Positions 9,353-63,830 of a stretch of 64,000 bases of DNA are shown piece by piece; the stretch's first letter is position 1, and every line of letters starts with the position of its first letter. A model generated the notes under the pieces. It was given only the letters and a program-made list of their open reading frames with translations. It made no database searches and was not told where the DNA came from. The stretch lies in the IMG/VR virus record IMGVR_UViG_3300031555_003522, positions 96,001-160,000 of that record. The stretch is one strand, 5' to 3'. This stretch comes from a virus (Duplodnaviria > Caudoviricetes). Position numbers and translations under genes: made by a program.

Positions 9353-12300
9353 ATGGCTAAGCCTACTAAGAATAATGAAGCCACAAATTTTGAAGAAAGC
9401 ATTCGTAGTTATGGTGATAAGATCGAACACATTGATACCTTTGTAGAAGCTGTGCGCCGATTCCCGGGTATGTATATCGGTGCAAAAAGTGATACTGGTT
9501 GGAAGGCATGTGGTCGAGAAATTTTCCAGAATGCTGTTGATGAGATTATCCGTGTAGAATCTCCTTGTCACTACGTAAAGATGAGTTTTGATGAAAGAAC
9601 TCAAGCTGTGGTAGTAGAAGATACTGGACGCGGTATTCCTCATGGTAAAATTATTGAAATCTATGCTAGTCAGCATACTAGTTCTAACTATTCCAAGAAA
9701 CCCGGTGAGTATACATCTGGTGTTCATGGTGTTGGCTCTGGTGTTGCTATGGCATTATCAAAATCTTTTGATATCTATTCGTACGTGCTTGGTGAAGCTA
9801 GGCATGTACATTTTGATTCTGGTGTATTATGGCCTGAAGGGGAAAAGGTTATTCCTTGTCCTGAGGGCAGACAGGGAACTACTGTTGTCATGACACCAGA
9901 CCTTGATGTATTAGACGAAGTAAATCTTACTTGCGAAGATTTCCTTGATCTAGTATTGAAGGTATATCCTCTTGTCAATGTCGGTGATAGAATAGATTTT
10001 ACCGGTATTGATAGAGATGGTAAAATCAAGTATCAGGAAGAATTAGTGAATAAGGATGGTATTATATCATCTCTTATGGTTAGAACTCAAGCTCCTCTTG
10101 TAACACCAGTACAGTTTAAAGATGATACTGGTTACATGAAAGCTGAGATCGCCTTCACTTATGACTCAAGTGATTTAACGTCTGTAGAAGATATTGTAAG
10201 TTATGCAAACTTTACACCTACAACTGGCGGCACGCACGTTGCTGGTTTTATGGATGGTGTGTGTAACTTCTTCCGAAACTACATGAACAAGATTTATCTT
10301 GGTGAGAAGTCTAAAGTTTCTGTGGTAAATAATGATGTCAAGACAGGTCTTAAAGTCATTATTGCAGCTGCTCATCTGAATCCTGTATTTGCGGGTCAGT
10401 TTAAGGGCATTCTGTCAAATGAAGATATGTATAAATATATCAAAGATCTGACTATGAAATCTTTGGAAGAATGGTCTAAGACGAGTCCTGGTGATTTGCA
10501 AAAGATTTGCAAGTTCATCAAGGAGATTGCTGAGATACGAATGAAGAGTGATGATAGTAAGATCAAGCTATCTAATAACTATGAAGCGAGTTCTCTTACT
10601 GGTAAGCCAAAGAAATATGTCCCACCCTCTGGACATAAAAATCTGGAGTTGATTATTGTAGAGGGTGATTCTGCATTAGGTTCTACTAAGAATAGTAGAG
10701 ATACTGCAACGCAAGGCGTATTCCCTGAAGTGGACGGGGCATTGACTAGTAATAGTCAATCGTAAACTTCCTTAATTGCTGGGATGCTAAGTATTATATG
10801 AAAGCCTTAGAAACTTTTATATAATATATGCTAATCAGCAGCCAAGTAGAAATCGGAAGTGATGCACTATGTATAATCCAATTATCTTTAATAATGAAGA
10901 GTTTAAAGATATAGTAATTCCAAATGTTAAACCGATATATTCTGTAAGCAATTATGGTACTATAATTAATAAAATAACCGGTGAGCAGATTAGCATGCAA
11001 ATTACAAGTGATGGATATTTAAGAGTGGGTTTATCGTGTTTAAATGGTAATACCAAACACTTTCTTGTCCATAGATTAGTATTAATGGCATTTTGTCCAA
11101 TACCTAATCCTGAATCGTTCGAGGGAAATCATCTTAAAGGAATAAAGATAGATAATAGGGTAGAGGAATTAGAGTGGACAACCACGTTAGAGAATAATCA
11201 TCATTCTTTTGATACGGGGTTGAATAATAATATACGAGAAAATCATGCAAAAGCTAAACTCACCAATGATCAAGTTCATTTAATATGTCAATGCTTAGAA
11301 AAAGGAATGACTATTAAAGAGATAGAACCTTTGATTATAGATACAGGATGTATAGATCTTGGAAGAAATATAAGAGCTATACGAGAAAGAAAAGCATGGG
11401 TTACTATAAGTAAGGATTATTCGTTTAGTAGCAGAAACAATAGAGATATGTTTTGTGATGATGAAGTTAGAATTATCTGTAAAATGATAGAAGCAGATGC
11501 CGGATATAAGAATATTTTAATATCATTAGGAATAGATATTTCTACTTTATCTTCAAAAGAGCTAGCAAATTATTGTGATATAATAAGTAATATTAGAGTG
11601 GGTAAATATTACTCAGATATATCTAAGGATTTTGATTTTTCAAAATCAAAGTTATTTAGACATGACCAAACTTTAGATAATGATAAAATAACTAAAGTGT
11701 GCAAATGTTTAGAATCTGGTATGAGTAGTACTGAGATACTAAATAAGCTTAATATATCAAAAGAATCCGTAGGTTATGAGAAATATGATAAAAGTCGACG
11801 GATTATAAATAAAATTAGAGCTAGAAAAGCATTCATTTCAATCTCTAAAGATTATGATTTCTAAAGGTTCAACGACTATCGAAAGGTATCTTATGATGAA
11901 CCGAGTAGAGTAGAACTCAAGCGAGTTTCGAAATGGGAAGGATCCATATAAATGGATCGTGATATAGTCTCATCTGTATGGAAACATACAGCAGTTCATA
12001 AGAGAACGGTATAGAAGTAGCGACTCTATATGAAGATATTGATCCGTGGTAAGTTGCCTAATGCATTTAAAACATCTAAAACATCTTTCTTAGCAAATCA
12101 AGAAATTGCTTCCATTATCACAATTATTGGTTGTGGATATGGTAAGAATTTTGATATAACTAAGTGTAAATTCGATAAGATAATTTTCTTAGCAGATGCG
12201 GATCCGGATAAGGTTGTGAGCTGTCCGGCTTAATAGAAATATTAAGAAAATAACTCTCTTAATTGCTGGAATATCTTAAAAATTGAGACAATCAGCAGCG

Positions 12301-13526
12301 AAGCCTCTTATATGAGGAACGTTCAACGACTAGTCGAAAGACGTAGGGTTCAAGCGAGCTCGAAATGGAGAGCCCTTAACAGGCAATGCTGAAGGTGAAG
12401 ATATAGTCTAACCTACATGGTGACATGTAGCAGTTCATAAGAGAACGGTATAAGTTTAGCGAACTTATATGAATATTAGGGTTCACACATTAATACACTT
12501 CTGCTTAGATTCTTTATCATGTATCTGCCAGAATTGATTACAGCTGGTAGGGTTTATCGTGCTGTTCCTCCTCTGTTTGGTATTAGAGGTAAGGGCAATA
12601 GTATGAAATACTTTACTACAAAGCTTGATTTCACTAAATATGTCCAGAATTTGTTTGCTCACAATCATGTGCTTACAGATATTAATGGGCGTAGACTTAC
12701 TAGCAATGAAACTACAAATTTATTCTTTAAGAATATAGATTATAAAGATCAAATTGAATCTATTGCAAATACTTTTGCGGTAGATCCTGATCTATTAGAA
12801 TCTGTATTATATCATCTCGCAAGATTTGTTGAGATTGGTAATCCTGAAGCTGTCGCCAGTATGGCTGCAAGGGCTAAAGCCGTAAAGGCTACTAGTAAGA
12901 AAGCAGAAAGTGCGACAAAAAAGAAAACAGAGGGTGCTAGTAAGGCAAAGAAGCAGACCTCTAAAAAAGAAGAAGATATTTCTGATGATGGAGATTTTAA
13001 TATAGAAGATATTCCTATCACAGAAACATCTGTATCTGCATCTGTAGCTTATTACATTAAACCTACGTTTAATGCAAAAGCTCTGAGAACAGAACTGAAG
13101 AAGTTATACAGATTCGTTGATATCGTTGAAGATAATGGTGTCATTAGAATTGAAGGACTTGTCAATAGTAGATATCAATATGTATTTATTAATGATAAAT
13201 TTATAGCTTCTTGTATTCCCCTTATCGAGACCATTAAGAATAATACTGACTTGTATTATCGTGTAAATGATGAAGCTGTTAGTTTGTATTCCTTAATGTG
13301 TCAATTCGATAATATGATCCCATCCGGCCTGATTAGATATAAGGGCTTGGGCGAACAGGATCCAGATCAATTGGCTGTATCTGCACTTCATCCCAAGGGT
13401 GATAGAACTCTTATTAGATATACTATTGAGAGCGCTAAAGAAGAAATCGAAAGTCTTAGACGAATCGATTCTAGTATGGCATCCTTGCTTAGAGAAGTTA
13501 AAATTACTAAAGCAGAGATTGAATAA
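9353..13526 (+). CDS. gyrB: DNA gyrase/topo II subunit B in three exons: 9353-10726, 12042-12209, 12480-13526 (862 aa spliced)
   Basis: RRFPGMYIG, EIFQNAVDE, DTGRGIP, GVHGVG, IVEGDSA; splicing restores QGVFP|IRGKLPN and DADPD|GSHINTLLL; C-terminal RYKGLGE. Confidence 0.95.
10727..12041 (+). mobile_element. Group I intron 1 of gyrB with HNH gene
   Basis: P1 CCCU|G..CGGGG with U-G wobble; core TTAATTGCTGGGA, AATCAGCAGCC, GTTCAACGACTA, GATATAGTCT; terminal G at 12041; frame restored. Confidence 0.93.
10869..11864 (+). CDS. Intron-encoded HNH homing endonuclease
   Basis: YSVSNYG, GYLRVGL, VHRLVLMAF, NHLKGIKIDNRVEELEW; three C-terminal repeats ending ISKD(Y/F)xF. Confidence 0.9.
   Translation: MYNPIIFNNEEFKDIVIPNVKPIYSVSNYGTIINKITGEQISMQITSDGYLRVGLSCLNGNTKHFLVHRLVLMAFCPIPNPESFEGNHLKGIKIDNRVEELEWTTTLENNHHSFDTGLNNNIRENHAKAKLTNDQVHLICQCLEKGMTIKEIEPLIIDTGCIDLGRNIRAIRERKAWVTISKDYSFSSRNNRDMFCDDEVRIICKMIEADAGYKNILISLGIDISTLSSKELANYCDIISNIRVGKYYSDISKDFDFSKSKLFRHDQTLDNDKITKVCKCLESGMSSTEILNKLNISKESVGYEKYDKSRRIINKIRARKAFISISKDYDF
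12210..12479 (+). mobile_element. Group I intron 2 of gyrB (270 nt, no ORF)
   Basis: P1 CCGGAU|A..UGUCCGG; P10 GUGAGCU with exon GGUUCAC; AAGATATAGTCT; terminal G at 12479. Confidence 0.95.
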
Positions 13527-25149: not shown

Positions 25150-25284
25150 ATTCTAAAGTTCGTTAACTTTTTAATCTTTACATTTTACTTCTTTATTTTC
25201 TTATTTTTTTTTAATTTTTAGTTATAAAAAAATATTTTTCTATATTTAAATATCATAGGTATAATATAATCACTAGATAATTAT

Positions 25285-25377
25285 ATTAAAAACGGGAAAC
25301 AGAATTAAAAACGGGAAACAGAATTAAAAACGGGAAACAGAATTAAAAACGGGAAACAGAATTAAAAACGGGAAACA
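25285..25377 (+). repeat. Tandem 19-bp repeat ATTAAAAACGGGAAACAGA, 4 full copies plus 17 bp
   Basis: Exact copies start at 25285, 25304, 25323, 25342 and 25361; the last runs into a 13-bp inverted repeat (25373-25404). Confidence 0.97.
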
Positions 25378-25439
25378 TGGAAAACTCTAATGTTTTCCAT
25401 GTTTATTTCTAGAATATAAAATATATTTAACTAATAGAT

Positions 25440-35735: not shown

Positions 35736-35851
35736 TCTGTAAAATCTTACAAAATTATAAACTGATTATTAAACGTATATTATAAGTTTGATCTGAGCCT
35801 CTCGGGTAGACTCGAGAGGCTTTAATCATAATACAAGGAGGACAAAAAGTC

Positions 35852-36466
35852 ATGAGCAAACAATTCGAACTCGGTAATACCTCTATCCCCAGTCAGTTTA
35901 GCGTAAATTTGAAAAATAATTACGGTCTGATCTGGCTGGAAGCTAGAACCGCGGACTTCTATCGTGTAGTCCTTGGAACTTTTGCAGATTGCTGCAGACT
36001 GTATCAGTCTAAGGCAAATTCTCGTATCGGCCTGTCCCTTAAGGATGATAAGGGCAATTTTATCTTTGGCACTATTCTGTCTTTCCAGAAGCCTGAGGAA
36101 GAGTCTGAAGATGATTCCGGTAACTGGTATCTGGAATTCACTATGGATGAGGCCGACATGATTGATCTCGATATTGATATTGACAATCATAGCCGTGAAT
36201 TCATCCAGACTGCTATTCTGAAATGCAATTCTGTTATGAATGGTCGTTTCAAGAATACAGAAGTTCTGTATCATATGTTTATCGAAGCAATTAATACACT
36301 CACCACCTTCCTTGATGTAAACGCTACCGAAGGTGAGGAAGTTGAAGTTGTTTTGCGTGCAGTATTTACTGCTACTGTTGCATACGATGATGAAGGAAAG
36401 AAAATCTTCTCCATCATTCCTGGTGAATATATTAAGCAGCTCATTAAGAACGATGCTGCTCTGTGA
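35852..36466 (+). CDS. Acidic hypothetical protein, first gene of the RNAP beta-N operon (candidate sRNA target)
   Basis: AAGGAGG RBS; early-type promoter 35776 and 5' hairpin. Confidence 0.88.
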   Translation: MSKQFELGNTSIPSQFSVNLKNNYGLIWLEARTADFYRVVLGTFADCCRLYQSKANSRIGLSLKDDKGNFIFGTILSFQKPEEESEDDSGNWYLEFTMDEADMIDLDIDIDNHSREFIQTAILKCNSVMNGRFKNTEVLYHMFIEAINTLTTFLDVNATEGEEVEVVLRAVFTATVAYDDEGKKIFSIIPGEYIKQLIKNDAAL

Positions 36467-36540
36467 TTTAAATCACGATGACCGGATGGGGTCTTCCCAT
36501 CCGGTTTATTTTTAATCTTCTAGAAAGGGGTTATAAACCT

Positions 36541-37203
36541 ATGTCTTTAGTAAAGGCTAAAATAGGTGAAACCATCTATGATGTAGTCAGCTACGAAGAA
36601 TATTATAGAAATATGTCACTATATCCAGCAGCATATACTGCTATTAGATATGGTGATGGGTATATATATCCCATTAGACCTCTGTCTGACTATAGACCTG
36701 GCGCATATATGACAGGATGTTTGGATGTTTTTAAACCTCCTACGACTGCTACAGAATGCGCTATGTATAGTGAACAGAATATCATAGATTTCACTAAGGC
36801 TGAAGGTATGAGAGATCTCATAACCTGTAGCCAGATGCTCAATGCCGCAGAGAGATCTATTCTTACAAATATAGACAACCTATTTATTCCCGATATTGGT
36901 GAGAATGATACTCCTGAAATGCAGGCTCTTAAACAGGCGATTATTGCAAAGCATATAGATCTCGATAAGTATGAACCTCGGTTTGGCCCTAATTATAATA
37001 ATGATAAGAGACTTCTGAGGAAGGATAGAATCACATTTGATAAATTCCGTACAATTGGTGAATGTTTGGATATTAAGGCAACTTTAACCATTGAAGATGC
37101 TAACCCTGATGTTCCTAATCCTATTGGACGAGCTATTAGTGTAGAAATTACTGGCCGTCCTATGTCTATCGATGGCGATGGTGAAGTGGAGGTACAGGAA
37201 TGA
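36541..37203 (+). CDS. Hypothetical protein
   Basis: Probable start ATG 36541; ATGA-coupled to the next gene. Confidence 0.8.
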   Translation: MSLVKAKIGETIYDVVSYEEYYRNMSLYPAAYTAIRYGDGYIYPIRPLSDYRPGAYMTGCLDVFKPPTTATECAMYSEQNIIDFTKAEGMRDLITCSQMLNAAERSILTNIDNLFIPDIGENDTPEMQALKQAIIAKHIDLDKYEPRFGPNYNNDKRLLRKDRITFDKFRTIGECLDIKATLTIEDANPDVPNPIGRAISVEITGRPMSIDGDGEVEVQE

Positions 37204-38975
37204 ATCAACGTGAAGCCATTGCTGGTTTTATAAATGAAAACCGAGCAAAATTTAATCCGTTATTCTTTCAAAGAGATGAAGATGAAATCATCAAAGAATT
37301 GATGAATGTAATTAAATCTTGTGAAAGAGATAATAAGTATTTTACTATTAAAGTACAATCATATAGAATCATTGATGATTATGATGAAATCAATCAGATT
37401 CTCTTTGATTATTATGAGAGTACTACAAAAAATAAATCCAAGGCTAAGAAACGAGACAATCAATATGGATTTATTAATCTTAATGAGTCTTATATTAGAC
37501 TCTTGATTGTGACTTATTATGTCAAGGATAGTAAAGAGGATGGTACAATTGATGTTGTGATCGCTGTACCTAGAATTATTGATAGATACTATTTCAAGAT
37601 TAATGGAATTATGAGATCCACTCTGTTCCAGATAGTCGATGGTAGTACCTATAATAATGGTACTTCTAATGCTAAAACTCCTAGTATTACTCTTAAGATT
37701 ATCTTTATGGCAACAAGAGTTACAAGATATTTCTTAAGTGTAAAAACAACTGAAGGAGACGAATTAAAGCTTACACATTATTACTCTCGTATCTTTAGTA
37801 AGGGTGTGAGCGCTGCAAAATATATATTTGCAAAGTTTGGCTTCTTAGGAGGATTAGATTTCTTCGGTCTTGCAAATGGATCTATCTTTATTACCAAAAA
37901 TGATCCTTGTGATACTAGCCTATATACCATTCAGTTACAGAATGAATGTTATATAAATAGTCCTAAAATGATTCTTGATAATAATGTGCTTGTACAATCT
38001 GTTATAGCAACACTATATCAAAATATCATTCCTTCTATGGATTATGAGACTATCTTTGATCCTGTTTTCTGGGTAAGAAGCCTTGGAGTAGAATTTAGTG
38101 GTGGCGGAGCCGAAAGACTTGCTGCTATTATGGATCCTGAAGATGATACCGTTACAGATACCTACGATAAAGGTTGTAGCATTCTTGATTCTTTCGAATC
38201 TATATATGATATCAGTACAAGAGAGTCTATTAAGCTCCCTGAAGAAGATAAAGCTACCACTTATCATATTCTTAGATGGATTATGAGAGAATTTAATGCC
38301 CTCAGAGTAAAGGATAATCTTGACATTAGTTGTAAGAAAATTCGATTCGCTGAGTATATTGCATCTCTCTATGCGTTTAAGATCGCTAAGGGTATATATC
38401 GTGTATCTGATATGAATAAGAAGGCTAGTATATTAAGCATTCGTAAAGCTATTAGAACCGATCCGAATTTCCTTTTAGCCGCTATAACCAAATCTAAAAT
38501 GGTATCTTATCGTAATATGGTTAGCGATATGGATTCTATGCAAGCCCTTAAATTCACATATAAAGGTGTATCTGGACTTGGAGAGAATTCTAATCAGTCT
38601 ATTCCTGATATTTATCGTTCTATTCATCCTAGTCATATAGGAAGAGTAGACCTTGATGCGTCTTCTGATGGTAATCCTGGTATTACTGGAACAATCTGTC
38701 CTTTCGCATCTATCTATGACGGCTTCTTTGAAGATTATCAGGAGCCTAATAGCTGGGAACAGGATTTTATGTCTGTAATGGATGACTATAAGAAAGCTAC
38801 CAATTTGAAAGATGCTATGATCTTTGAAGAAAAAATTCTTGGTACGGATAGACATGAAGATATAGAAGCTACCTCTGAAGTCATCGCTACGATGCAACAA
38901 ATCATTAAACCTGTTCTTTTTGCAGATCAGGGAGAGATTGTTTCATTGGAGGATGTTTATAATGGCAGCTATTAA
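37200..38975 (+). CDS. rpoB: RNA polymerase beta, N-terminal half
   Basis: YFKING..FQIVD and RSIHPSHIGRVDLDASSDGNPGITG (beta RDVHPTHYGRVC..EGPNIG). Confidence 0.85.
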   Translation: MNQREAIAGFINENRAKFNPLFFQRDEDEIIKELMNVIKSCERDNKYFTIKVQSYRIIDDYDEINQILFDYYESTTKNKSKAKKRDNQYGFINLNESYIRLLIVTYYVKDSKEDGTIDVVIAVPRIIDRYYFKINGIMRSTLFQIVDGSTYNNGTSNAKTPSITLKIIFMATRVTRYFLSVKTTEGDELKLTHYYSRIFSKGVSAAKYIFAKFGFLGGLDFFGLANGSIFITKNDPCDTSLYTIQLQNECYINSPKMILDNNVLVQSVIATLYQNIIPSMDYETIFDPVFWVRSLGVEFSGGGAERLAAIMDPEDDTVTDTYDKGCSILDSFESIYDISTRESIKLPEEDKATTYHILRWIMREFNALRVKDNLDISCKKIRFAEYIASLYAFKIAKGIYRVSDMNKKASILSIRKAIRTDPNFLLAAITKSKMVSYRNMVSDMDSMQALKFTYKGVSGLGENSNQSIPDIYRSIHPSHIGRVDLDASSDGNPGITGTICPFASIYDGFFEDYQEPNSWEQDFMSVMDDYKKATNLKDAMIFEEKILGTDRHEDIEATSEVIATMQQIIKPVLFADQGEIVSLEDVYNGSY

Positions 38976-39189
38976 ATACTTCCTGTATTCCTCTGAGCAA
39001 CTTAAACTTAGAAAGTCTGTAGAATCTAAGATGGGAAGAGTTTTTAGAACTGGTACAGTTATTGTGAATGGAAAGAGAAAGCCATTTACAGAACTGTCAT
39101 CTAAGCCTACATCTAGATTCTCAGATGCTATAGTTGTTGCTTCTGGGGATCCTACCTTGATGAACTATACACTGCCTGAAGGAGGCTAA
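38962..39189 (+). CDS. Small basic hypothetical protein
   Basis: GGAGG RBS before ATG 38962. Confidence 0.75.
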   Translation: MAAIKYFLYSSEQLKLRKSVESKMGRVFRTGTVIVNGKRKPFTELSSKPTSRFSDAIVVASGDPTLMNYTLPEGG

Positions 39190-39190
39190 T

Positions 39191-39466
39191 ATGTCATCAA
39201 AGAAGTTTAAGAATAAGCTTAAAGGTAAAAACAATAAAACAGCTTATTCTGTACCCGAGTATAATCACTATACTCAGTTTAAAGAAATCCATTTGGCATC
39301 AGATGGAATACTTACCATATGTAAAGCTATAACCATAGATGGTGTAGAAGAATTTTACGTATGGGATAACCCTAAACATCGTGAATTAGTTCGAAAGAAT
39401 TGTATCAAAGATGTAAAAATTATAGAAGGCCCTAATTTGGGTAAGGGGTGGAATTATGGAATCTAA
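39191..39466 (+). CDS. Hypothetical protein
   Basis: AGGAGG RBS, operonic. Confidence 0.75.
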   Translation: MSSKKFKNKLKGKNNKTAYSVPEYNHYTQFKEIHLASDGILTICKAITIDGVEEFYVWDNPKHRELVRKNCIKDVKIIEGPNLGKGWNYGI

Positions 39467-39794
39467 TAAAGAAATCCAAATAGAGCCTATAGAGATTTAT
39501 GGAGCAGGCGGATGTCCAAATTGTTCCTCAACTCTATATGTTGCTGATTCCGAATTAACTCTAATGGAAGTTAATAGAGATGGGATTCCTATCTCAGAAA
39601 CAACCACAATAACCTGTAAAGCCATATGCCCTAATTGTGGAACAAGAATACCTATGATGAGATACAATGGAGCATATGTTCCTTATAGTATTGATGCAGA
39701 GATTTGGAACGAAATTCAAAGAAAAGATAGAGCTGAGGCTCGTCTTAAGCAATTGAATGGTAATTCAAACCCTCTGGTAAATGAAGATACATGA
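39456..39794 (+). CDS. Zn-ribbon protein
   Basis: CPNC..CPNC. Confidence 0.8.
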   Translation: MESNKEIQIEPIEIYGAGGCPNCSSTLYVADSELTLMEVNRDGIPISETTTITCKAICPNCGTRIPMMRYNGAYVPYSIDAEIWNEIQRKDRAEARLKQLNGNSNPLVNEDT

Positions 39795-39828
39795 GGATAT
39801 TTAATAAAATTATTAAGGAGGAAGAAAG

Positions 39829-40515
39829 ATGAAAACCGCATATGCCAGCTTAAAGACTCATTTTGATACTATGATAATGGGTGGTAGACGTAGATATAGA
39901 CCTGATGGTTATGAATCTCTGCGCGATACCTATGAAATTGCATATGATATCAAGATTCCTTTGTTCGATATTTATAGGGAAAAACTCGATTGTAATACGA
40001 ACCCTATTGGTTATATCGCAACTCTTATGGGCCCCGAAGCAAAGGTTGATGATATTCCCTTTGGAATTATGGTAGATGGGGATAATATTGTTTATAGCCA
40101 TGCTATAAATGAAGATTACAGAAGCATAATTACAGATAAGCAGATATCTATATATATCTGTGAAGTATATTCTGCCATTAGAGGCATTATTAAGCAGGAT
40201 AAGTTCTATCTTGGCGATAAAGAAGCTAGAACTAATATGCTTGTAGCTGTAACTCGTGCTCTCCCCTTCTATTTAACCTTCTTCCACTTTAAGGCTATCC
40301 TTTCGAATGGATCTATTAGCGGAGACCCCAAGATTATTGGAGAAAAAGCATCAGAAGCATTTGTGATGATTCTTGAGAAGTATATCACAAATACAGAAGA
40401 AGATGCTAAAGCTCTTTTGGAATTCCTTCTGAATAAGAATAATACATTCAGCGATGATATATCCATTATTTACCGTCAGATGACGTTTAATAATAAGATT
40501 GAACTGTTTGTATAA
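39829..40515 (+). CDS. Hypothetical protein
   Basis: AAGGAGG RBS; terminator about 40525-40564. Confidence 0.8.
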   Translation: MKTAYASLKTHFDTMIMGGRRRYRPDGYESLRDTYEIAYDIKIPLFDIYREKLDCNTNPIGYIATLMGPEAKVDDIPFGIMVDGDNIVYSHAINEDYRSIITDKQISIYICEVYSAIRGIIKQDKFYLGDKEARTNMLVAVTRALPFYLTFFHFKAILSNGSISGDPKIIGEKASEAFVMILEKYITNTEEDAKALLEFLLNKNNTFSDDISIIYRQMTFNNKIELFV

Positions 40516-40581
40516 CTTATAAAATAAATGCGGGCGAGATTACATCAAACCCGCATTCTTTTTTGAAAGGAGAATCGATTT

Positions 40582-40926
40582 ATGGCTGCAAATAAACCAT
40601 ATGACATAACTCCGATTCCTCAAGAACCTATAGAAGAAGGACTTATAAATCCTATTATCTTTAATAGACCCGATATGTGCCCAAATTGTAAATCGCAAAA
40701 GGTAGAGCTTATGAGCTTTAATAACTATCCTCAAGGATATAATGGAGCCGTAGATGCTTTTCTATCTGGTTACTTGGTAACATTCGATAAATATGAGATA
40801 AGAAGTATGAGATGTAAGTCCTGTACTAAAGAATTTGTTATCGATTGGGCTGAGGGATTCCCAAAACCCTTAAGAGACACAGATAAAAGTAATATTTTCT
40901 TTATGGAATTTCTTGCAGGTATATGA
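40582..40926 (+). CDS. Zn-ribbon protein
   Basis: CPNC..CKSC; NPIIFN motif. Confidence 0.8.
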   Translation: MAANKPYDITPIPQEPIEEGLINPIIFNRPDMCPNCKSQKVELMSFNNYPQGYNGAVDAFLSGYLVTFDKYEIRSMRCKSCTKEFVIDWAEGFPKPLRDTDKSNIFFMEFLAGI

Positions 40927-41019
40927 CCACTATCGTTTATAAACGATAGTGGTTAGTTATTTTTATCACAATACCTGTCCTATAACTACCTAATAAGGTG
41001 CATTTAGGAGGCAACAAAA

Positions 41020-43731
41020 ATGAAATTCACATCATTACACCTTACCAATTACATTGGTATATATAATGGTATGGGATTATATGATATCCATATAGATATG
41101 ACAAAATCCCAAAATAGAATAATGATTATACGAGGAGATAATGGTAGTGGAAAATCAACTCTTGCAAAAGCAATGAGTGTATTTCCAGATCCCAATGATT
41201 CCTTTATTCCAGGTATGCCCGCCAGAAAAGAAATAGTTCTTGCAGATGGCCCAACTTTTTATCGACTTCTTTTTATTCATGGAGTAAAAGCAAATGGAGA
41301 TAGAGAGGTAACAAAGGCATATATAACTAAGACATTTGGAAACACAGCCATTGAATTGAATGAGAATGGTAATGTTTCTTCATATAAAGATATCTTATAT
41401 TCCGAGCTTGGATTGGATGCTAATTTTGTTGCATTATCTCAATTGAGCAATGACGATAGAGGATTGGCGGATAAGAAGCCAGCAGAAAGAAAGAGATTTG
41501 TTAATTCTATAATATCTTCACTTGAGACCTATAATAGTATTTATAAGACATTAACAAAAAGATCTACTAATCTAAAATCTATGATTAGTTCCATTGCAGC
41601 AAAACTTGGAGTTCTTGGAGATCAGCAAACCGTAGATGCAAATTTACAATCCGTTGAAGACAGAATAAACACTCTTCAGGATCTAAAAGATAAAGCTGTT
41701 ACAGAGATGGCAAAAGACCAGTCTCTTATATCTATACTAGATCCAGATGGATCTATTCAATTGAATAATACAAAAATATCTACAGATCTTGCAATTGCTA
41801 AAAAAGATGTAGAGAAAATTCAAGCTAAAATTCTTGCTATTAGACAAGAGAATTCTATACCAGATGGAGATTCTCATAATTTAAGAAGAATAGTATCTGA
41901 TAAAAAGGGATCTCTTATGGTAGCTAATCAGCTTGCTAGAAACAAACTAGAGAATTTATTAAATAGACAAGAAAATGAAGCTAAACTCTTAGGAGATAAG
42001 ACGAGAAGATTGGAGTCTCTTAAGAGTGAATATGATTATGGTATACTTGTAGACAAAATAGCTATTTATACACAAGATATTGCAGATATAGAGAATACTC
42101 TAGGAGCAATAGGAATACGAGATATAATGTCTATAAGTAAAGCTGAATATATATTGGCTCTCGAAACCCTTAGAGACTTATCGGAATATATTCTGAGATT
42201 TAAAGCTTCTACTGATTTGAAAATAATAGAAAGCATTATTGATGAGTATATGCCTACTGGAAAAATACCGGCAAGACAAAGTTCAGATGAAGATGCCAAG
42301 ATAGTTGAAGAAAGCAAATTCAAGATGGTTTCTATAGAAAAAGATGTTGATCTTTTGGAATCTAGACTTGGATTATTAGATAAACTTCAACTAAGACCAG
42401 ATGACTGTACCGATGATTCTTGTCCATTTATTAAAGAAGCTCTAGAATTTTCTAGAACTAATCCTCATAATGAAATAGATAGACTTGATGCATTGGTTTA
42501 TTCGTGCCAAGCTTTAATAGACCACCATTCTAAAGAAATAATTAGAAAAGATGATTATAATAATGCAGTAAACACATTTGCTATTATAGTAAGAGAGATA
42601 GATAAGAACGGAGCTATACTATCTAAAATGCCTAATGGTGAAATGTTTGCAGATAAAAAGCTATTCTTTTCTAGATTATTATCTGGATATAGTTTCGAGT
42701 ATATGGCAGAAATATATAAATATATTGAGTATGCCAATCTATTTGATACCTATAGACAGACTAAGCCAGTTCTTGCCGAGTATCAAGCAGAGCTTAAGGT
42801 TTATGAAAGCAAATCTGAGATTATAGAATCACTAATGAGCGATATACAATCTATAAGTATTGTATTAGACGAAATAATGAGATCTATAGACCCGATAAAT
42901 AAAGAAATTAGTGATAGAGAATTAGAAATATTATCATTACAAGAACTTGAAGGTATATACGATACCATCATTTCTTATGAAGATAAAATGAAACCACTAA
43001 TTCAAAGTATTTCTGAGCTTGAAACTATGCTGAGCAACAATCAGAAAAAAATGATAGATATTACAGAAGCATTAACTAGAATTTCTTCTCATAGAGAATC
43101 TATAGGTAGGTATACATTTGATTTGTCTCCTCTTATGCGAGAAAGAGATAAACTTGTGCATACCTTACAGATGATGAAAGATTATGAGAAAGAACGCGAT
43201 GAGCTTCAGTCGACCTATGATTTTATAGAGACTATTAAATATTACTCATCACCGACTACTGGAATTCAGTTGGTTTTCATGGAACTTTATATGGGTAAAA
43301 TAATAGCTTTAGCTAATAAATTATTGAGCCTATTATTTGGAGGTCAGTTTGTTATACAGCCGTTTGTAATAAATGAGAGTGAATTTAGAATTCCTTGTTT
43401 AGGAAATGGATATATAAATGATGATATATCTTCTATGAGTAGTTCTCAGATTGGAATGATATCGATGATTTTAAGTTTTGCATTATTGTATCATTCTAGT
43501 ACTAAGTATAATATTATTAAACTTGATGAGATCGATGGACCGTTAGATCAAAATAATAGACTATTTTTCTCAGATGTATTAAATAATATTATGGATATTA
43601 TGGGCACAGAACAGTGTATTATGATATCTCATAACTCTGAGCTTCAAGTAGATAATGCTGATGTAATTCTATTAAAGCATGATATAAACAATACTGAATA
43701 TAGAAGAGGAAATATAATTTGGAGTTATTAA
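41020..43731 (+). CDS. sbcC: SbcC/Rad50 ATPase
   Basis: GDNGSGKST, coiled coils, CTDDSCPF hook, SMSSSQ, KLDEIDGPLD, ISH. Confidence 0.93.
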   Translation: MKFTSLHLTNYIGIYNGMGLYDIHIDMTKSQNRIMIIRGDNGSGKSTLAKAMSVFPDPNDSFIPGMPARKEIVLADGPTFYRLLFIHGVKANGDREVTKAYITKTFGNTAIELNENGNVSSYKDILYSELGLDANFVALSQLSNDDRGLADKKPAERKRFVNSIISSLETYNSIYKTLTKRSTNLKSMISSIAAKLGVLGDQQTVDANLQSVEDRINTLQDLKDKAVTEMAKDQSLISILDPDGSIQLNNTKISTDLAIAKKDVEKIQAKILAIRQENSIPDGDSHNLRRIVSDKKGSLMVANQLARNKLENLLNRQENEAKLLGDKTRRLESLKSEYDYGILVDKIAIYTQDIADIENTLGAIGIRDIMSISKAEYILALETLRDLSEYILRFKASTDLKIIESIIDEYMPTGKIPARQSSDEDAKIVEESKFKMVSIEKDVDLLESRLGLLDKLQLRPDDCTDDSCPFIKEALEFSRTNPHNEIDRLDALVYSCQALIDHHSKEIIRKDDYNNAVNTFAIIVREIDKNGAILSKMPNGEMFADKKLFFSRLLSGYSFEYMAEIYKYIEYANLFDTYRQTKPVLAEYQAELKVYESKSEIIESLMSDIQSISIVLDEIMRSIDPINKEISDRELEILSLQELEGIYDTIISYEDKMKPLIQSISELETMLSNNQKKMIDITEALTRISSHRESIGRYTFDLSPLMRERDKLVHTLQMMKDYEKERDELQSTYDFIETIKYYSSPTTGIQLVFMELYMGKIIALANKLLSLLFGGQFVIQPFVINESEFRIPCLGNGYINDDISSMSSSQIGMISMILSFALLYHSSTKYNIIKLDEIDGPLDQNNRLFFSDVLNNIMDIMGTEQCIMISHNSELQVDNADVILLKHDINNTEYRRGNIIWSY

Positions 43732-43803: not shown

Positions 43804-44120
43804 GAGGAGAAGCTGCGTCCGCCCATATAAAATAACGCCTTTGGAATTACCCCACCTCAGCATGTTTTGGCAGAGGTTGATTTCCATTTGAGTTTTACAC
43901 TCTAACGCCGTATTTTATACGCACCTTCTTCTGACATAGCGGCTCGGGTCCTATACGATATATTTGCCACTTTATATTATCGGTAGGATCGAGCATGTGC
44001 TGGTTTCTCAATTGTCCATATGGCGATCTCCTATGTATGTTACCTTCGTGATGCTTGCGGTAAAATAAAAGTGGCAAAAGTATCCCCCGGCGTAAATGGC
44101 GCCGGGGGATATTCTTTTTT
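43804..44120 (+). ncRNA. Candidate structured ncRNA D (~315 nt) with pseudoknot
   Basis: AACA-N6-TG at 43793; GC-rich; stems 43807-43818/43919-43930, 43826-43833/43911-43918, 43942-43953/43983-43994; loop TTTGCCACTTT (43963-73) pairs with AAAGTGGCAAA (44068-78); terminator 44081-44120. Confidence 0.8.
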
Positions 44121-45078
44121 AATATTCATTCATTATATTATTTCCGTCTAATACAAGAGGCCATACCTGATTGATATTTCTATTTCTTGCTATCTGAGTA
44201 TGAATATCAATTGTAGTATCCTCTAATAAGAAATTATCTGGTCTAGGATAATTAGGAATACTAGCACCAGTAGTCGTATCGATTACGTCAAAACAACGCT
44301 GACCAGTAGCCTGATTATATCTAACTACAGTCTGTACATTAGGATTAGATTCCATACGCATTCTAGCCTGTTCCGGACTCAGTCCATTAGGAGTAATTCC
44401 ATTATTGGCAACCATCTCTACACCAGAAACGCCAGCGGCAGGATTATTTACACCAAGAGTGATATCCTGAATACTAGGAGCAGGAGGTGTATAAACGCCA
44501 ACAGGAGTATTTACAAATGCAGAATAGATATCCATCATCTTCATATCATCATTAGCTTCACTCTTATCCATTTTGAGAGTCTTAAATCTATTAAGATTAA
44601 GATTATGGGCCTGAGTAATAGTGCTGTTAAGTTCTTTAATAGCAGAGATCTTGGTGGATAATAAAGCACTAGCAGATGCTGTTAAATTAGTAAGGTAAGT
44701 GTATTTACCTTTAATAGTTTTGCTAGCGCGAATCTCATCAATATCTCCTTTAATAGCTGCACTCATTTCGTCAGCCTGGACTATAGCACCGCGTAAAAGA
44801 TTATTGGTTTCAGAGTACGAAGTGTGATAGTTTGTCTCTGCTATATCTGCACCGGGTACAGGATTTATCATTCCATTTATACCCAATTGATCTTCAGGAA
44901 TAACTGTGACACTAGCTTTCTTCTTTTTCTTGGATTTGGGATCAGGATCTACTGGTAAAGATGATGCTTCTTCAGAAGTAAAGAAACTAAAATCAACACC
45001 AATACTATCATTATCATTATTGGCTTCCGGTATGCTTTGTGCAATCATACCACCAAATAAAGAAGAGATCTGTTCCAT
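44119..45078 (-). CDS. Hypothetical protein
   Basis: GGAGG RBS before ATG 45078; late-type promoter upstream. Confidence 0.85.
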   Translation of the reverse strand: MEQISSLFGGMIAQSIPEANNDNDSIGVDFSFFTSEEASSLPVDPDPKSKKKKKASVTVIPEDQLGINGMINPVPGADIAETNYHTSYSETNNLLRGAIVQADEMSAAIKGDIDEIRASKTIKGKYTYLTNLTASASALLSTKISAIKELNSTITQAHNLNLNRFKTLKMDKSEANDDMKMMDIYSAFVNTPVGVYTPPAPSIQDITLGVNNPAAGVSGVEMVANNGITPNGLSPEQARMRMESNPNVQTVVRYNQATGQRCFDVIDTTTGASIPNYPRPDNFLLEDTTIDIHTQIARNRNINQVWPLVLDGNNIMNEY

Positions 45079-45155
45079 TATATAAACCTCCATTATTTTT
45101 TTTTAATTATTAAGATGTTTAAGGTAATACTTTACGACATCACAAACATTATTTT

Positions 45156-45256
45156 AATCCTTAAAGGATTAGAAATCGCTCATAACGACTTTTTGATCTG
45201 CCCTGTGTATTTGAAAATATAGCCACGCTTCTGCCGGAGCGTGGCTATATTCTTTT
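45156..45256 (+). ncRNA. Candidate sRNA E (~100 nt), antisense to the translation start of gene 35852
   Basis: AACA-N6-TA at 45145; 5' hairpin 45155-45171; linker 45178-45214 complementary to 35826-35857; terminator 45216-45256. Confidence 0.78.
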
Positions 45257-45348
45257 ATCATGGACAATTGTATATTATAATAGTGCAAAAAACTATTTAT
45301 TAATATCCTAAACGTACGCAATTCTATCGAATTAGGAAGGTGACTCTA

Positions 45349-48300
45349 ATGATTAAAGGTAGAAATCCTGGAGACAATATAACATTGATGAATACAATGT
45401 TTGTTCAAGGGACTGATCCATCTGATGGTAAATTCCATCAAACGATGACATTGGTTTATAAAGATCTTGATAGTGGTCTTAAGCATGTAGAGGAGATCGA
45501 CGATCCTGATTATGAATATTTTATGATTCACCCAGATAAGAGGGTGGATTATAATAGATTATTTGTATCTAAAGACGATGTAGAACGTATTGTAGTTCCA
45601 TATGGATCTTTGGAAAAAGATATAGCTTTGAGGCTTGGATTTAAAGAATTCTATTACGATAATATTCGTACTGGTAATAAAGGTGAGAATAGAAAACTTC
45701 ATATCCATCCTGATCTATTTAATAGTGATATGAATATAGAGGATCACTATAAATTCAGATTTGACAAGATGTATAGAAATGAAACTTGCCCTATAACAAA
45801 AGCATTTTTTGATATTGAGGTTGATAGTATTAATATGATGGGAGACTTCCCAGAACCTGGTGAATGTCCTGTTAATGCTATAACTCTTATTTGCCAAGAT
45901 GTTCATCAAGTATATACATTCTTGTTGAGAACTAAATCCAATCCTCAGATTATTGAATTTGAAAAGCAAGTTAATGACGGCTCTATATTTCCAGAATTAA
46001 CTAATTTCGTTATAGAGGCCGTTGGTGGTCCTCAAGTAGCAGCATCATATGAGATTAATTTTAATTACAATTTCTTATTCTATGATGAAGAAGATGAGAT
46101 TAATCTTATTAAGGATTTATTTGTAGCCATTAATATTCATAAACCAGATTTTGCACTGGCATGGAATATGGGCTTCGACGTTCCGTATATTATTCAGAGA
46201 ATAATAAATCTTGGATATGATCCTTGTGACATAATGTGCCATCAGGATTTTAAACGCAAGATTGTAAAATATATGGTAGATGAGAGAATGAAAAATGAAT
46301 TGGCTGAACGAGGAGATTATGCGGCAATATCTTCTTATACTGTATATCTCGATCAGATGATCCAATTTGCGTCTCGACGTAAAGGACAAAGTAAGTTTTT
46401 ATCATTCTCATTGGATTACATCGGTGAGCATATTGCTGGTGTAAGAAAGCTTGACTATAAAGCTATAACCACGAATATTGCAGAGCTTCCTTATAAATCT
46501 TATAAGACCTTTGTATTCTATAATATAATCGACACCATAGTTCAGTATTGTATTGAGATGAAGACAAAGGATATAGATTATGTATTTGGTAAGGCTCTTT
46601 TAAATAATACAAGATATTCTAAAACCCATAGACAGACTGTTTATTTGACTAATAGAGCTGCTAAAGTTTTTGATGCACAGGGATTTATTATTGGTAATAA
46701 TGCTAATAAGTTTAATAGCAAACCGGATGAAAAATTCCCTGGAGCGTTTGTAGCAGATCCTGAAAAAGTTAATAATACTTCTCGAATGCAAATTTATGGG
46801 TTATTTATAAACTTATTTGACAATTGTGTGGATTTCGATTAAGCAATAGTCGCTTAATTCAGTAATGGATTAAGAAAACTCCCTTAATTGCTGGAAACTC
46901 TAGCAGAAGTGATATAATTGCTTCATCCATATATTATAAATATGGTGCTAGACAATCAGCAGCCAAGAAAAATTGTAAAGGAGACTTTTATCGTGAGAAG
47001 ATATGAGTTCGAAATCCCTATAGATATAATAGATCCATCTATTCTATTGAATGGGGAAAGATTTGAATATATAACAGAAGATATTGTTCCTGGGGTATAT
47101 CCATATTATATGGTATCGAATTGTGGCAGAGTATATCACAGGTATCTTCAATGTATAATGAAACAGGGTTTAGAAACGAGTGGTTATCTATTTATAACTT
47201 TAGCTACTTGTAATGGGCCAAAGATAATTCAAATGAATAGACTAGTCTTAATGACATTTGACCCTAATCCAAATTGCCATGAACTACAAGCAAACCATAA
47301 AGATGGTAATAAGCTTAACAATTATCTCTATAATTTAGAATGGGTAACAAGATCTGAAAATATTATTCATGCATATGAAACTAAACTTCATATACCAAAG
47401 AGCAGTATTTCAGAAGATCAAGCTATTCAAATAGTAGAATTACTAAAAACCAATCAATATCAGTGTAAAGAAATAGCTATTATGATGGGTATTAATGAAA
47501 ATATAGTAAATTCTATTAAGAAAAAAGAATCTTGGAAAAGATTAACTAGAGATTGCAATTTTGATGCTAGACAAGGAAAGTTATATACGGATAATGATGT
47601 TCGTATTTTATGCGAATATTTTCAAAATAATCCAAAATTAGAAGGTCTAGAATCTAAAGCTTATGTACTAGAAGCTTTGATATCTTGTGGATTTGATAAC
47701 CCACAAGATAAAGTAGATACGGCAAGAAAGATCTATTCTAAAAAACATTATACTAGAATTTCTAAAGATTACAATTTTTAAGGTTCAACGACTATCGAAA
47801 GGATAATATGAGAGAAATACTCATATGAATAACCGAGTAGAGTAGAGTTCTAGTGAACTCGAAATGGGGAGCGTCCTATAAACGGTAACAGAATATAGGA
47901 TGATGATATAGTCTAATCTATATGGTGACATATAGCAGCTTACAAGCGGTATAAGATTAACGACCTTATATGAATAAAAATGTTTGCTTCGCTATACCCA
48001 TCTTTGATCCGTCAGTTTAATATAGCAGCTAATACTATTATTGGTAAGCTGATGATTAATGACAAAGTTCATGACAAAGAAAATATTTCTGATATGGATA
48101 ACTGGACTAGAGCTGGTGCATTTATGGAAGATATTCAGTCTCAGCAGTGGCTAGAGTTTACTTCCAGATGGTTTGGACTGCCAGATTATACTGTTCTGTA
48201 TCATGAAGTAGAGAGATTCTTTACGCAGATTGCTAATGCGTATCTCGGTCTTAGGGTCTACGAAAGAGATGGAACTATAGAGCCTATCACATTTGATAAA

Positions 48301-62801: not shown

Positions 62802-63830
62802 TTACATACCTTCAATAAATCCATTATCTGTAGAAGAATCGCCCATACCATTAGTCCAGCTGATAGCACTTTTAATGGTTGTCACTTCTTCCTTAAGTTC
62901 TGTAACATCCTTCTCAACAACAGTAACATCACCGATTTTGGTTAGCCATTCCTCTTCAGTACCTTCAAACCCATTTTCTTTGGCAACCTCGTATGCAGAT
63001 AAACCTCTAGGTCCACGGATACTTTCGAGCCATTCCTCTTCGGTACCTTCATAACCATGGTCAAGAGCAATCTCATAAGCAGATTTTCCATCTTTACCAT
63101 TTTCTCCACTAGCACCCTTAAGAGACTCGAGCCATTCCTCTTCAGTACCTTCAAATCCATGCTCTACGGCAATTTCATAAGCAGACTTACCATCTGCCCC
63201 AGTACCGCCGCCACCAGCCATGATCATATTGATCCATTCTTCTTCAGTACCTTCATAACCGTATTCTACAGCGATCTCGTAAGCAGACTTACCATCTTTA
63301 CCACGGATACTTTCGAGCCATTCTTCTTCGGTACCTTCATAGCCGTTATTTACTGCAATTTCATAAGCACTATAGCCTCGTTCACCCTTAAGACTTTCGA
63401 GCCACTCTTCTCTAGTACCTTCAAATCCGCAATCTACAGCAATCTCATAGTTATCCTTACCAGGATCACCCTTCAGAGATTCCAGCCAGTCTGTTACAGT
63501 ACCAACGAAACCATGCTCAACAGCAATTCTATAAGCATCATTAGGAGTTACATCCTTTAACAACTGCACCTGATGGAAGTAGATTCTTTCTTTTCTACTA
63601 TTATTATCACAAGACCAGTCGAAAAGAATATAGCTATTCTGAGGCATAGCGCGATTCTGAACCACGTTCAGAATCCTACCAGTACGGTTTACACTCTTAC
63701 CGTCTTTAATATAATATAATTCATAAAGACCATCATCGGTAACAACAACATTCTCGACCATTCCATGACCGAGAGTGACAGTAATTCTATATACCTTTTT
63801 ATCAATAGGATCTGCGGAAATAATTGGCAT
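62802..63830 (-). CDS. Repeat protein with seven SAYEIA..G(F/Y)EGTEEEWL units and short Gly-x-y linkers
   Basis: Repeats are visible in protein and DNA; AAGGAGG RBS. Confidence 0.85.
   Translation of the reverse strand: MPIISADPIDKKVYRITVTLGHGMVENVVVTDDGLYELYYIKDGKSVNRTGRILNVVQNRAMPQNSYILFDWSCDNNSRKERIYFHQVQLLKDVTPNDAYRIAVEHGFVGTVTDWLESLKGDPGKDNYEIAVDCGFEGTREEWLESLKGERGYSAYEIAVNNGYEGTEEEWLESIRGKDGKSAYEIAVEYGYEGTEEEWINMIMAGGGGTGADGKSAYEIAVEHGFEGTEEEWLESLKGASGENGKDGKSAYEIALDHGYEGTEEEWLESIRGPRGLSAYEVAKENGFEGTEEEWLTKIGDVTVVEKDVTELKEEVTTIKSAISWTNGMGDSSTDNGFIEGM

Follow-up and report, generated by a model that had tools for sequence, protein, structure and literature searches.

Trans-encoded small RNAs (sRNAs) that combine a 5' hairpin, a single-stranded, pyrimidine-rich seed and a terminator, such as the RsaE/RoxS-type C-rich sRNAs of Firmicutes and the prophage-encoded DicF, occlude the Shine-Dalgarno (SD) sequence and the start codon of their targets. 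In phage T4, early phage mRNAs are shut off post-transcriptionally at their translation initiation regions by the proteins RegA and RegB. To our knowledge, the regulatory targets of sRNAs in virulent phages and in jumbo phages are almost unknown. The c4 RNA of P1/P7 and the sar RNA of P22, with lengths of about 70-77 nt, prevent the translation of a phage mRNA by pairing around its ribosome binding site; the target of c4 is the ant mRNA, the pairing partner of sar is the ant mRNA of P22, and both RNAs belong to temperate phages, where they control the antirepressor (PMC12197685). The T4 proteins, the translational repressor RegA and the endoribonuclease RegB, are covered by a review (PMC3014915). 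In the jumbo phages 201phi2-1 and phiKZ, short promoter-to-terminator sRNAs have been described, several of them upstream of genes and one conserved by position across genera, without an assigned function or target (PMC11512511).

How does the locus described here compare with these systems? It lies in a window of 64,000 nucleotides, bases 96001-160000 of a 207,861-bp IMG/VR virus record, whose genome is coded G000; coordinates below refer to the window unless another genome or contig is named. The DNA polymerase of G000 is closest to those of the Bacillus phages AR9 and PBS1, at 35% identity, and the phage is, by its sequence, a distant, uncultured AR9/PBS1-like jumbo phage. Like c4 and sar, the predicted RNA, sRNA E, is short, phage-encoded and complementary to the region around the ribosome binding site of a phage mRNA; unlike them, it forms a separate predicted late unit in an AR9-like jumbo phage, with an early operon 9 kb away as its proposed target, and it shares no sequence or Rfam relation with either. 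In design, the RsaE/RoxS type and DicF come closest, though by Rfam they are not homologous to it, and sRNA E differs from them in a longer duplex (26-41 bp in the lineages with a strong signal), in being phage-encoded and in its presumed synthesis by a phage RNA polymerase. In proposed role, the closest counterparts are RegA and RegB, with the difference that the T4 effectors are proteins and the effector proposed here is an RNA. The sRNAs of 201phi2-1 and phiKZ belong to another phage group and have no known targets, whereas for sRNA E a co-varying target is proposed.

Architecture and conservation of the sRNA E unit

Two promoter consensus sequences are described for AR9, early AAATATATATTAT-(6N)-G and late AACA-(6N)-TA/G, the last base of the latter being the start site (PMC5312081). 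In G000, the early-type motif TATATTAT-N6-G occurs 37 times; 24 of the 37 occurrences fall into intergenic DNA, which makes up 10% of the genome, and 19 lie at most 150 nt upstream of a same-strand gene. For AACA-N6-T[AG], 25.6% of the occurrences are intergenic, against 6-14% for controls in which the tetramer was permuted, the spacing set to N5 or N7, or the last dinucleotide exchanged. Both motifs appear to behave as promoters in G000, with the exact spacing of AR9; the promoter class and the timing that we assign to sRNA E and to its target gene 35852 are taken by analogy from AR9, whose polymerase is only 35% identical.

The unit is located in a 256-bp spacer between two divergent genes, 44119-45078 on the - strand and the DNA polymerase gene with its ATG at 45350, which encodes the N-terminal part of a family-B DNA polymerase. 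The spacer contains the following features:

45108-45119, - strand: divergent late-type promoter AACA-N6-TA for gene 44119-45078, 15-30 nt upstream of that gene
45145-45156, + strand: late-type promoter AACA-N6-TA according to the AR9 late consensus, predicted +1 at A45156
45156-45257, + strand: predicted sRNA E, about 100 nt from promoter to terminator
45156-45170, + strand: 5' hairpin of sRNA E, 6 bp with a 3-nt loop, beginning at +1 (centroid fold and co-fold)
45178-45214, + strand: anti-TIR segment (seed) of sRNA E, 30 bp with 35826-35857, containing the blocks GACUUUUUG and GCUCAU
45216-45257, + strand: intrinsic terminator of sRNA E, 16-bp stem at 45216-45251 with a 4-nt loop, then CUUUUA
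45271-45285, + strand: early-type promoter TATATTAT-N6-G of the DNA polymerase gene, +1 at 45285, downstream of the sRNA E terminator

The terminator was found by a terminator scan and has a folding energy of -24.8 kcal/mol; since the locus sits between divergent genes, there is no coding gene for it to terminate. The late-type motif agrees with an AR9-type late unit as served by the non-virion RNA polymerase, and use of that enzyme would follow from the situation in AR9 (PMC5312081).

No open reading frame in sRNA E is conserved among the relatives compared, which rejects a small protein gene at this locus: a 35-aa frame on the + strand begins upstream of the +1 and is closed in relatives, and an ATG on the - strand opens a frame of 4 codons only. 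Searched against Rfam 15, sRNA E matches no family at gathering or E-value thresholds; the top scores for 45100-45300, 17-24 bits against thresholds of 48-100, are sub-threshold hairpin noise, and a described family was rejected on this basis. A megablast of 44000-47000 against cultured phages gave no match. Also rejected were a transcript of the - strand, as the U-tracts stand on the + side only in all lineages, and a cis-antisense RNA of the sar/OOP type, as the target is 9.3 kb away on the same strand.

Relatives were searched with the DNA polymerase and with the 204-aa target protein, which yielded 14 further lineages carrying both loci on one contig and, with G000, a comparative set of 15; three further short contigs that cover only the spacer have the same layout. 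A bridge query with the SMC-like protein returned only two contigs, both already known. In all 15 lineages the order is the same, a late-type motif followed by the body, the terminator and the DNA polymerase's own promoter, with AACA-N6-TA at the same place throughout. The body measures 33-79 nt and the whole unit 77-118 nt, the terminators range from -16 to -25 kcal/mol, and the block around the divergent promoter on the - strand is kept in relatives as well. Among close relatives, L050, L051, L052 and L041 share the 5' hairpin, with a loop that varies. In the contigs L007/L043 and L049 (polymerase identity 53-56%), the sequence upstream of the polymerase is of another kind and lacks the unit; in AR9, an annotated early promoter precedes the DNA polymerase gene, and no equivalent of the sRNA E unit lies there.

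Within the unit, conservation is concentrated in the seed. Over about 36 nt of it, G000, L050 and L051 show 97-100% identity, in contrast to only 60% at the third codon positions of 35852 and a divergence of about 40% at synonymous sites; outside the seed the body is strongly divergent, with a mean column identity of 48%. The terminator stems of the relatives differ by compensatory changes. Seed identity and compensatory stems together are the signature of a functional RNA gene, and the seed is, by these comparisons, under purifying selection. We consider it highly probable that sRNA E is a real sRNA gene.

Complementarity to the start of gene 35852 and its co-variation

The proposed partner of the seed is the leader of an operon 9 kb upstream, with these features:

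35776-35790, + strand: early-type promoter TATATTAT-N6-G of the target operon, predicted +1 at G35790
35795-35822, + strand: 5'-proximal hairpin of the leader in the predicted fold, at the same place but with other sequence in relatives
35826-35857, + strand: target site with the SD AGGAGGA at 35837-35843 and the AUG at 35852-35854
35852-36466, + strand: target gene, 204 aa, first gene of the operon 35852-43731

The promoter fits the core of the AR9 early consensus (PMC5312081) and is kept upstream of the orthologs. In every lineage (L012-L015, L050-L061) a GC-rich hairpin, differing in sequence and followed by U's, stands a few bases after the predicted early start site; the leader hairpin could be a 5' stabilizer, or it could be the terminator of the upstream ligase operon, set after the next promoter. 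The target site itself is mostly unstructured in the predicted leader fold. As to the target protein, Pfam and PHROG gave no match. Its AF2 model is confident (pLDDT 92), and fold searches with it gave no convincing match in the PDB (TM about 0.47) and, in BFVD, only uncharacterized proteins of uncultured phages; tblastn against cultured phages found no match, and 77 homologs are present in metagenomes. The operon also encodes an SMC/SbcC-like ATPase and, at 37200-38975, a 591-aa protein that resembles the non-virion RNA polymerase beta of Staphylococcus jumbo phages.

An earlier sequence-only reading of this DNA had proposed about 30 bp of colinear pairing between 45178-45214 and 35826-35857, in blocks of 6, 9, about 6, 6 and 3 bp, spanning the initiation region of a gene that heads the operon with RNA polymerase beta. 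The letters quoted there are found at these coordinates, and the segment does form the linker between the 5' hairpin (45156-45170) and the strong terminator (45216-45251). The position of the gene at the head of that operon and the total of 30 colinear base pairs likewise hold, and RNAduplex reproduces the blocks as 6+9+3+3+9. The duplex extends from -27 to +7 relative to the AUG of 35852 and covers both the SD and the AUG. RNAduplex energies, which leave accessibility out of account, are -27.9 kcal/mol for the 37 nt against the 32 nt and -30.2 kcal/mol for the whole body against -45 to +12. Set against the hybrid energy of -27.9 kcal/mol are opening costs of 5.7 and, for the target site, 5.8 kcal/mol, and co-folding gains 21.9 kcal/mol over the monomers. 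In the minimum free energy fold of free sRNA E, about half of the seed is sequestered, part of it pairing with the region 3' of the 5' hairpin.

How unusual is this match within G000? By duplex energy the target ranks first among SD-preceded candidate starts, whether of 723 or of 398, and dinucleotide shuffles of the body give z = -3.3 (p ~0.008). In a scan of all 60-nt windows of the genome on both strands, however, unrelated sites reach -30.4, -29.8 and -29.0 kcal/mol against -29.9 for the target, which is thus no outlier on duplex energy alone. Because unrelated sites attain the same duplex energy, the match within G000 alone is moderately unusual and suggestive, short of decisive. The pairing becomes significant only through the relatives, so that the case is a comparative one.

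Orthologous leaders keep the early-type motif, the 5' hairpin and GGAGG and are otherwise strongly different, and the complementarity co-varies between clades. In a 15 x 15 matrix of bodies against leaders, the mean is -22.8 kcal/mol for cognate and -16.6 kcal/mol for non-cognate pairs, a result that no permutation out of 20000 equals; with 10 clade representatives, the values are -23.4 and -16.0 kcal/mol (permutation p ~1e-5). The difference persists after removal of the stickiness of RNA and leader (p ~5e-6) and with the discovery lineage left out (p = 2.5e-5). In 14 of the 15 lineages, the best duplex is colinear, begins upstream of the SD and reaches the start codon, and the letters that form it are specific to the lineage. 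Thus, ACAAAAA in the G004 mRNA faces UUUUUGU in its sRNA, where G002 has AGAAAAA and UUUUUCU; L054 pairs UAAAC with GUUUA and L056 pairs AUAAC with GUUAU; an insertion of CAA in the L055 mRNA is matched by an extra UUG in the sRNA; and L050 has lost the AAUACA block but acquired a perfect match of 11 nt that spans the start codon.

The strength of the signal is uneven. It is strong in five lineages, G000, G004, G002, L050 and L053, in which a complementarity of 26-41 bp is specific to the 35852 ortholog: the target ranks first among the candidate starts of G000 (398), G004 (466), L050 and L053 and sixth of 404 in G002, and shuffling gives z values of -6.5 in G004, -5.5 in L053, -3.3 in G000, -3.0 in L050 and -2.9 in G002. 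L056 and L057 are intermediate. The signal is weak in L051, L052, L054, L055 and L059-L061, and in L051, L052, L054-L056 and L059-L061 the target stands 6th to 16th among 20-41 local candidate starts, with shuffle p values of 0.04-0.39. In L058, pairing of the sRNA with the 35852 ortholog is absent. For roughly half of the lineages, neighbouring genes match as well as the ortholog or better.

Measured by the features of trans-encoded regulatory RNAs, sRNA E has its own terminator and its own predicted promoter, the activity of which we infer, at a distance of 9 kb from the target; it is non-coding; and its complementarity to the SD and AUG lies above chance and is held by co-variation, with support that varies between lineages. 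Our verdict is that sRNA E represents a putative new family of phage sRNAs with a predicted classical occlusion mechanism.

Alternative readings and proposed mechanism

Could the complementarity be a non-functional relic, either an inverted partial duplicate of the 35852 leader or a chance match beside a terminator that insulates divergent promoters? Read on the - strand, 45150-45275 is colinear to the sequence that leads up to 35852, with a hairpin, AAUACA, a degenerate SD, CAAAAAGUC and AUGAGC in the same order, and so the complementarity can be read as an inverted, diverged copy of the leader; the unrelated genome sites of equal duplex energy are compatible with chance. However, the two loci have hairpins of unrelated sequence, and the - strand ATG opens just the 4 codons mentioned above, in a locus where no reading frame is conserved. 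An inert duplicate would decay independently at both loci, whereas the seed is under purifying selection and cognate pairs outperform non-cognate ones in a lineage-specific manner. We therefore reject this reading as very improbable. Attenuation is an improbable explanation too, if not to the same degree; by this reading, the unit would be a late leader of the DNA polymerase gene that terminates early, read-through would serve late expression of the polymerase, the short RNA would arise as a by-product and its complementarity to 35852 would be functionless. The unit does lie on the same strand as, and directly upstream of, the polymerase gene in all lineages; AR9 genes that are expressed continuously carry both an early and a late promoter (PMC5312081), and in jumbo phage 201phi2-1, 8 of 11 sRNAs result from premature termination in 5' UTRs (PMC11512511). 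Yet in every lineage a separate promoter for the polymerase gene follows the terminator, the terminators are strong throughout and equipped with U-tracts, and the body has no conserved aptamer-like core such as would mark an attenuator or riboswitch. Attenuation would also leave unexplained the conservation of the seed and its co-variation with a site 9 kb away, and it is in any case compatible with a function in trans of the terminated product.

The uneven signal bears on another reading, by which sRNA E is a general anti-SD sRNA with a small regulon, its primary or ancestral target being another early start, for instance that of the Rpb2-like RNA polymerase (beta) gene, and 35852 being one of several targets or a lineage-specific one. 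The RNAs of L054-L060 carry an anti-SD seed of 10-12 nt (CUCCUUUGUU..) directly before the terminator, and the seed resembles the 16S anti-SD. In L056, L057 and L059, the seed target (AU)AACAAAGGAG, an exact complement of the sRNA seed over 12 nt in L056 and L057 and 10 nt in L059, has just two occurrences within 20 kb, one at the 35852 ortholog and one at the Rpb2-like gene start (L056:5262, L057:5253 and L059:5257, the target starting at about 9978). The beta start is the best local match to a true gene in L054, L055 and L058, and in L058 it pairs by 9+7 bp where the 35852 ortholog does not pair. In the clade of G000, moreover, conservation is higher in the seed than in the target site, so that a different partner, itself better conserved, is conceivable. 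Against this stand the long complementarity specific to the 35852 ortholog in the five lineages with a strong signal, where it is top or near-top genome-wide, and the beta start of G000 (31126), which has no comparable match. On balance, we regard a primary target other than 35852 as rather unlikely. As the seed matches the start of the Rpb2-like gene equally well in several lineages, sRNA E may have more than one early target, forming a small regulon in which 35852 is dominant in the window's own clade.

Returning to sRNA E as a trans-acting repressor of 35852, a function in repressing the initiation region of this gene appears to us moderately probable; if so, the RNA would probably switch 35852 off late in infection. 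How would this proceed? The steps that we infer comprise transcription, binding and repression, and a nuclease or chaperone could be involved. The non-virion RNA polymerase would transcribe sRNA E late, from the AACA-N6-TA promoter with a start at about 45156, and would stop at the strong terminator (45216-45257). The linker that separates the 5' hairpin from the terminator would then pair in trans with the leader of the early operon 9 kb upstream. The resulting duplex over the SD and start codon of 35852 should exclude the 30S subunit, and it may expose the polycistronic mRNA to double-strand-specific cleavage. By masking of the first cistron, the early operon with the non-virion RNA polymerase beta fragment would be shut off, the outcome being early-gene shut-off and possibly a negative feedback on the polymerase.

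What makes such a system worth pursuing? The sRNA E family offers a phage sRNA with a concrete, co-varying target and a simple logic, in which a late RNA would mask an early operon carrying a subunit of the late polymerase. Nature supplies more than 15 variants of seed and target, which could serve directly as controls with compensatory mutations. Confirmation would mean that temporal control by trans-acting RNAs extends to giant phages that bring their own transcription machinery. More tentatively, and as a possibility that we find doubtful at present, AR9-like jumbo phages of uncultured hosts might possess an RNA-based temporal switch, in which several sRNAs made by the late polymerase each mask start sites of early operons, the operons for that polymerase among them, with seeds and targets co-evolving by lineage. 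Were this true, temporal-switch sRNAs would accomplish early shut-off and polymerase feedback, as the RegA and RegB proteins do in T4.

Further elements of the genome and its relatives

Two more loci outside the window combine a late-type motif with a terminator. At G000:C1:185466-185559 on the + strand, the motif AACATATCATTG is followed by a 94-nt stretch that is free of open reading frames and contains UUUCCUUUCG, and by a 15-bp terminator, which makes it another sRNA candidate; a quick scan found no convincing target for it. At G000:C1:41722-41888 on the - strand, 167 nt lie between a late-type motif and a strong terminator; they contain two CCUCC stretches, each of them reverse complementary to an SD with its ATG on the opposite strand, and the locus may encode a cis-antisense RNA over the starts of two small genes.

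The only element of the window to pass an Rfam threshold is a group I intron at 12208-12430, with 94 bits against RF00028. A 77-nt element is present in three copies, at 11961-12037, 12400-12476 and 47905-47981; the last of these lies just before 47980, where the frame of the DNA polymerase resumes after the open reading frame 46918-47781, and the polymerase gene appears to be interrupted by an ORF-carrying intron. Repeats of other kinds are found at 25266-25379, where five tandem copies of a 19-bp unit (ATTAAAAACGGGAAACAGA) stand in a long non-coding stretch, and at 62927-63546, where seven repeats of about 80 nt at a spacing of 84 or 102 nt resemble a protein module that is repeated in frame on the - strand. 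In L053 and L055-L061, finally, a tubulin-family protein (PF00091) and a RecA-like protein adjoin the Rpb2-like gene upstream of the target operon, the former recalling the PhuZ-type tubulins of other jumbo phages.
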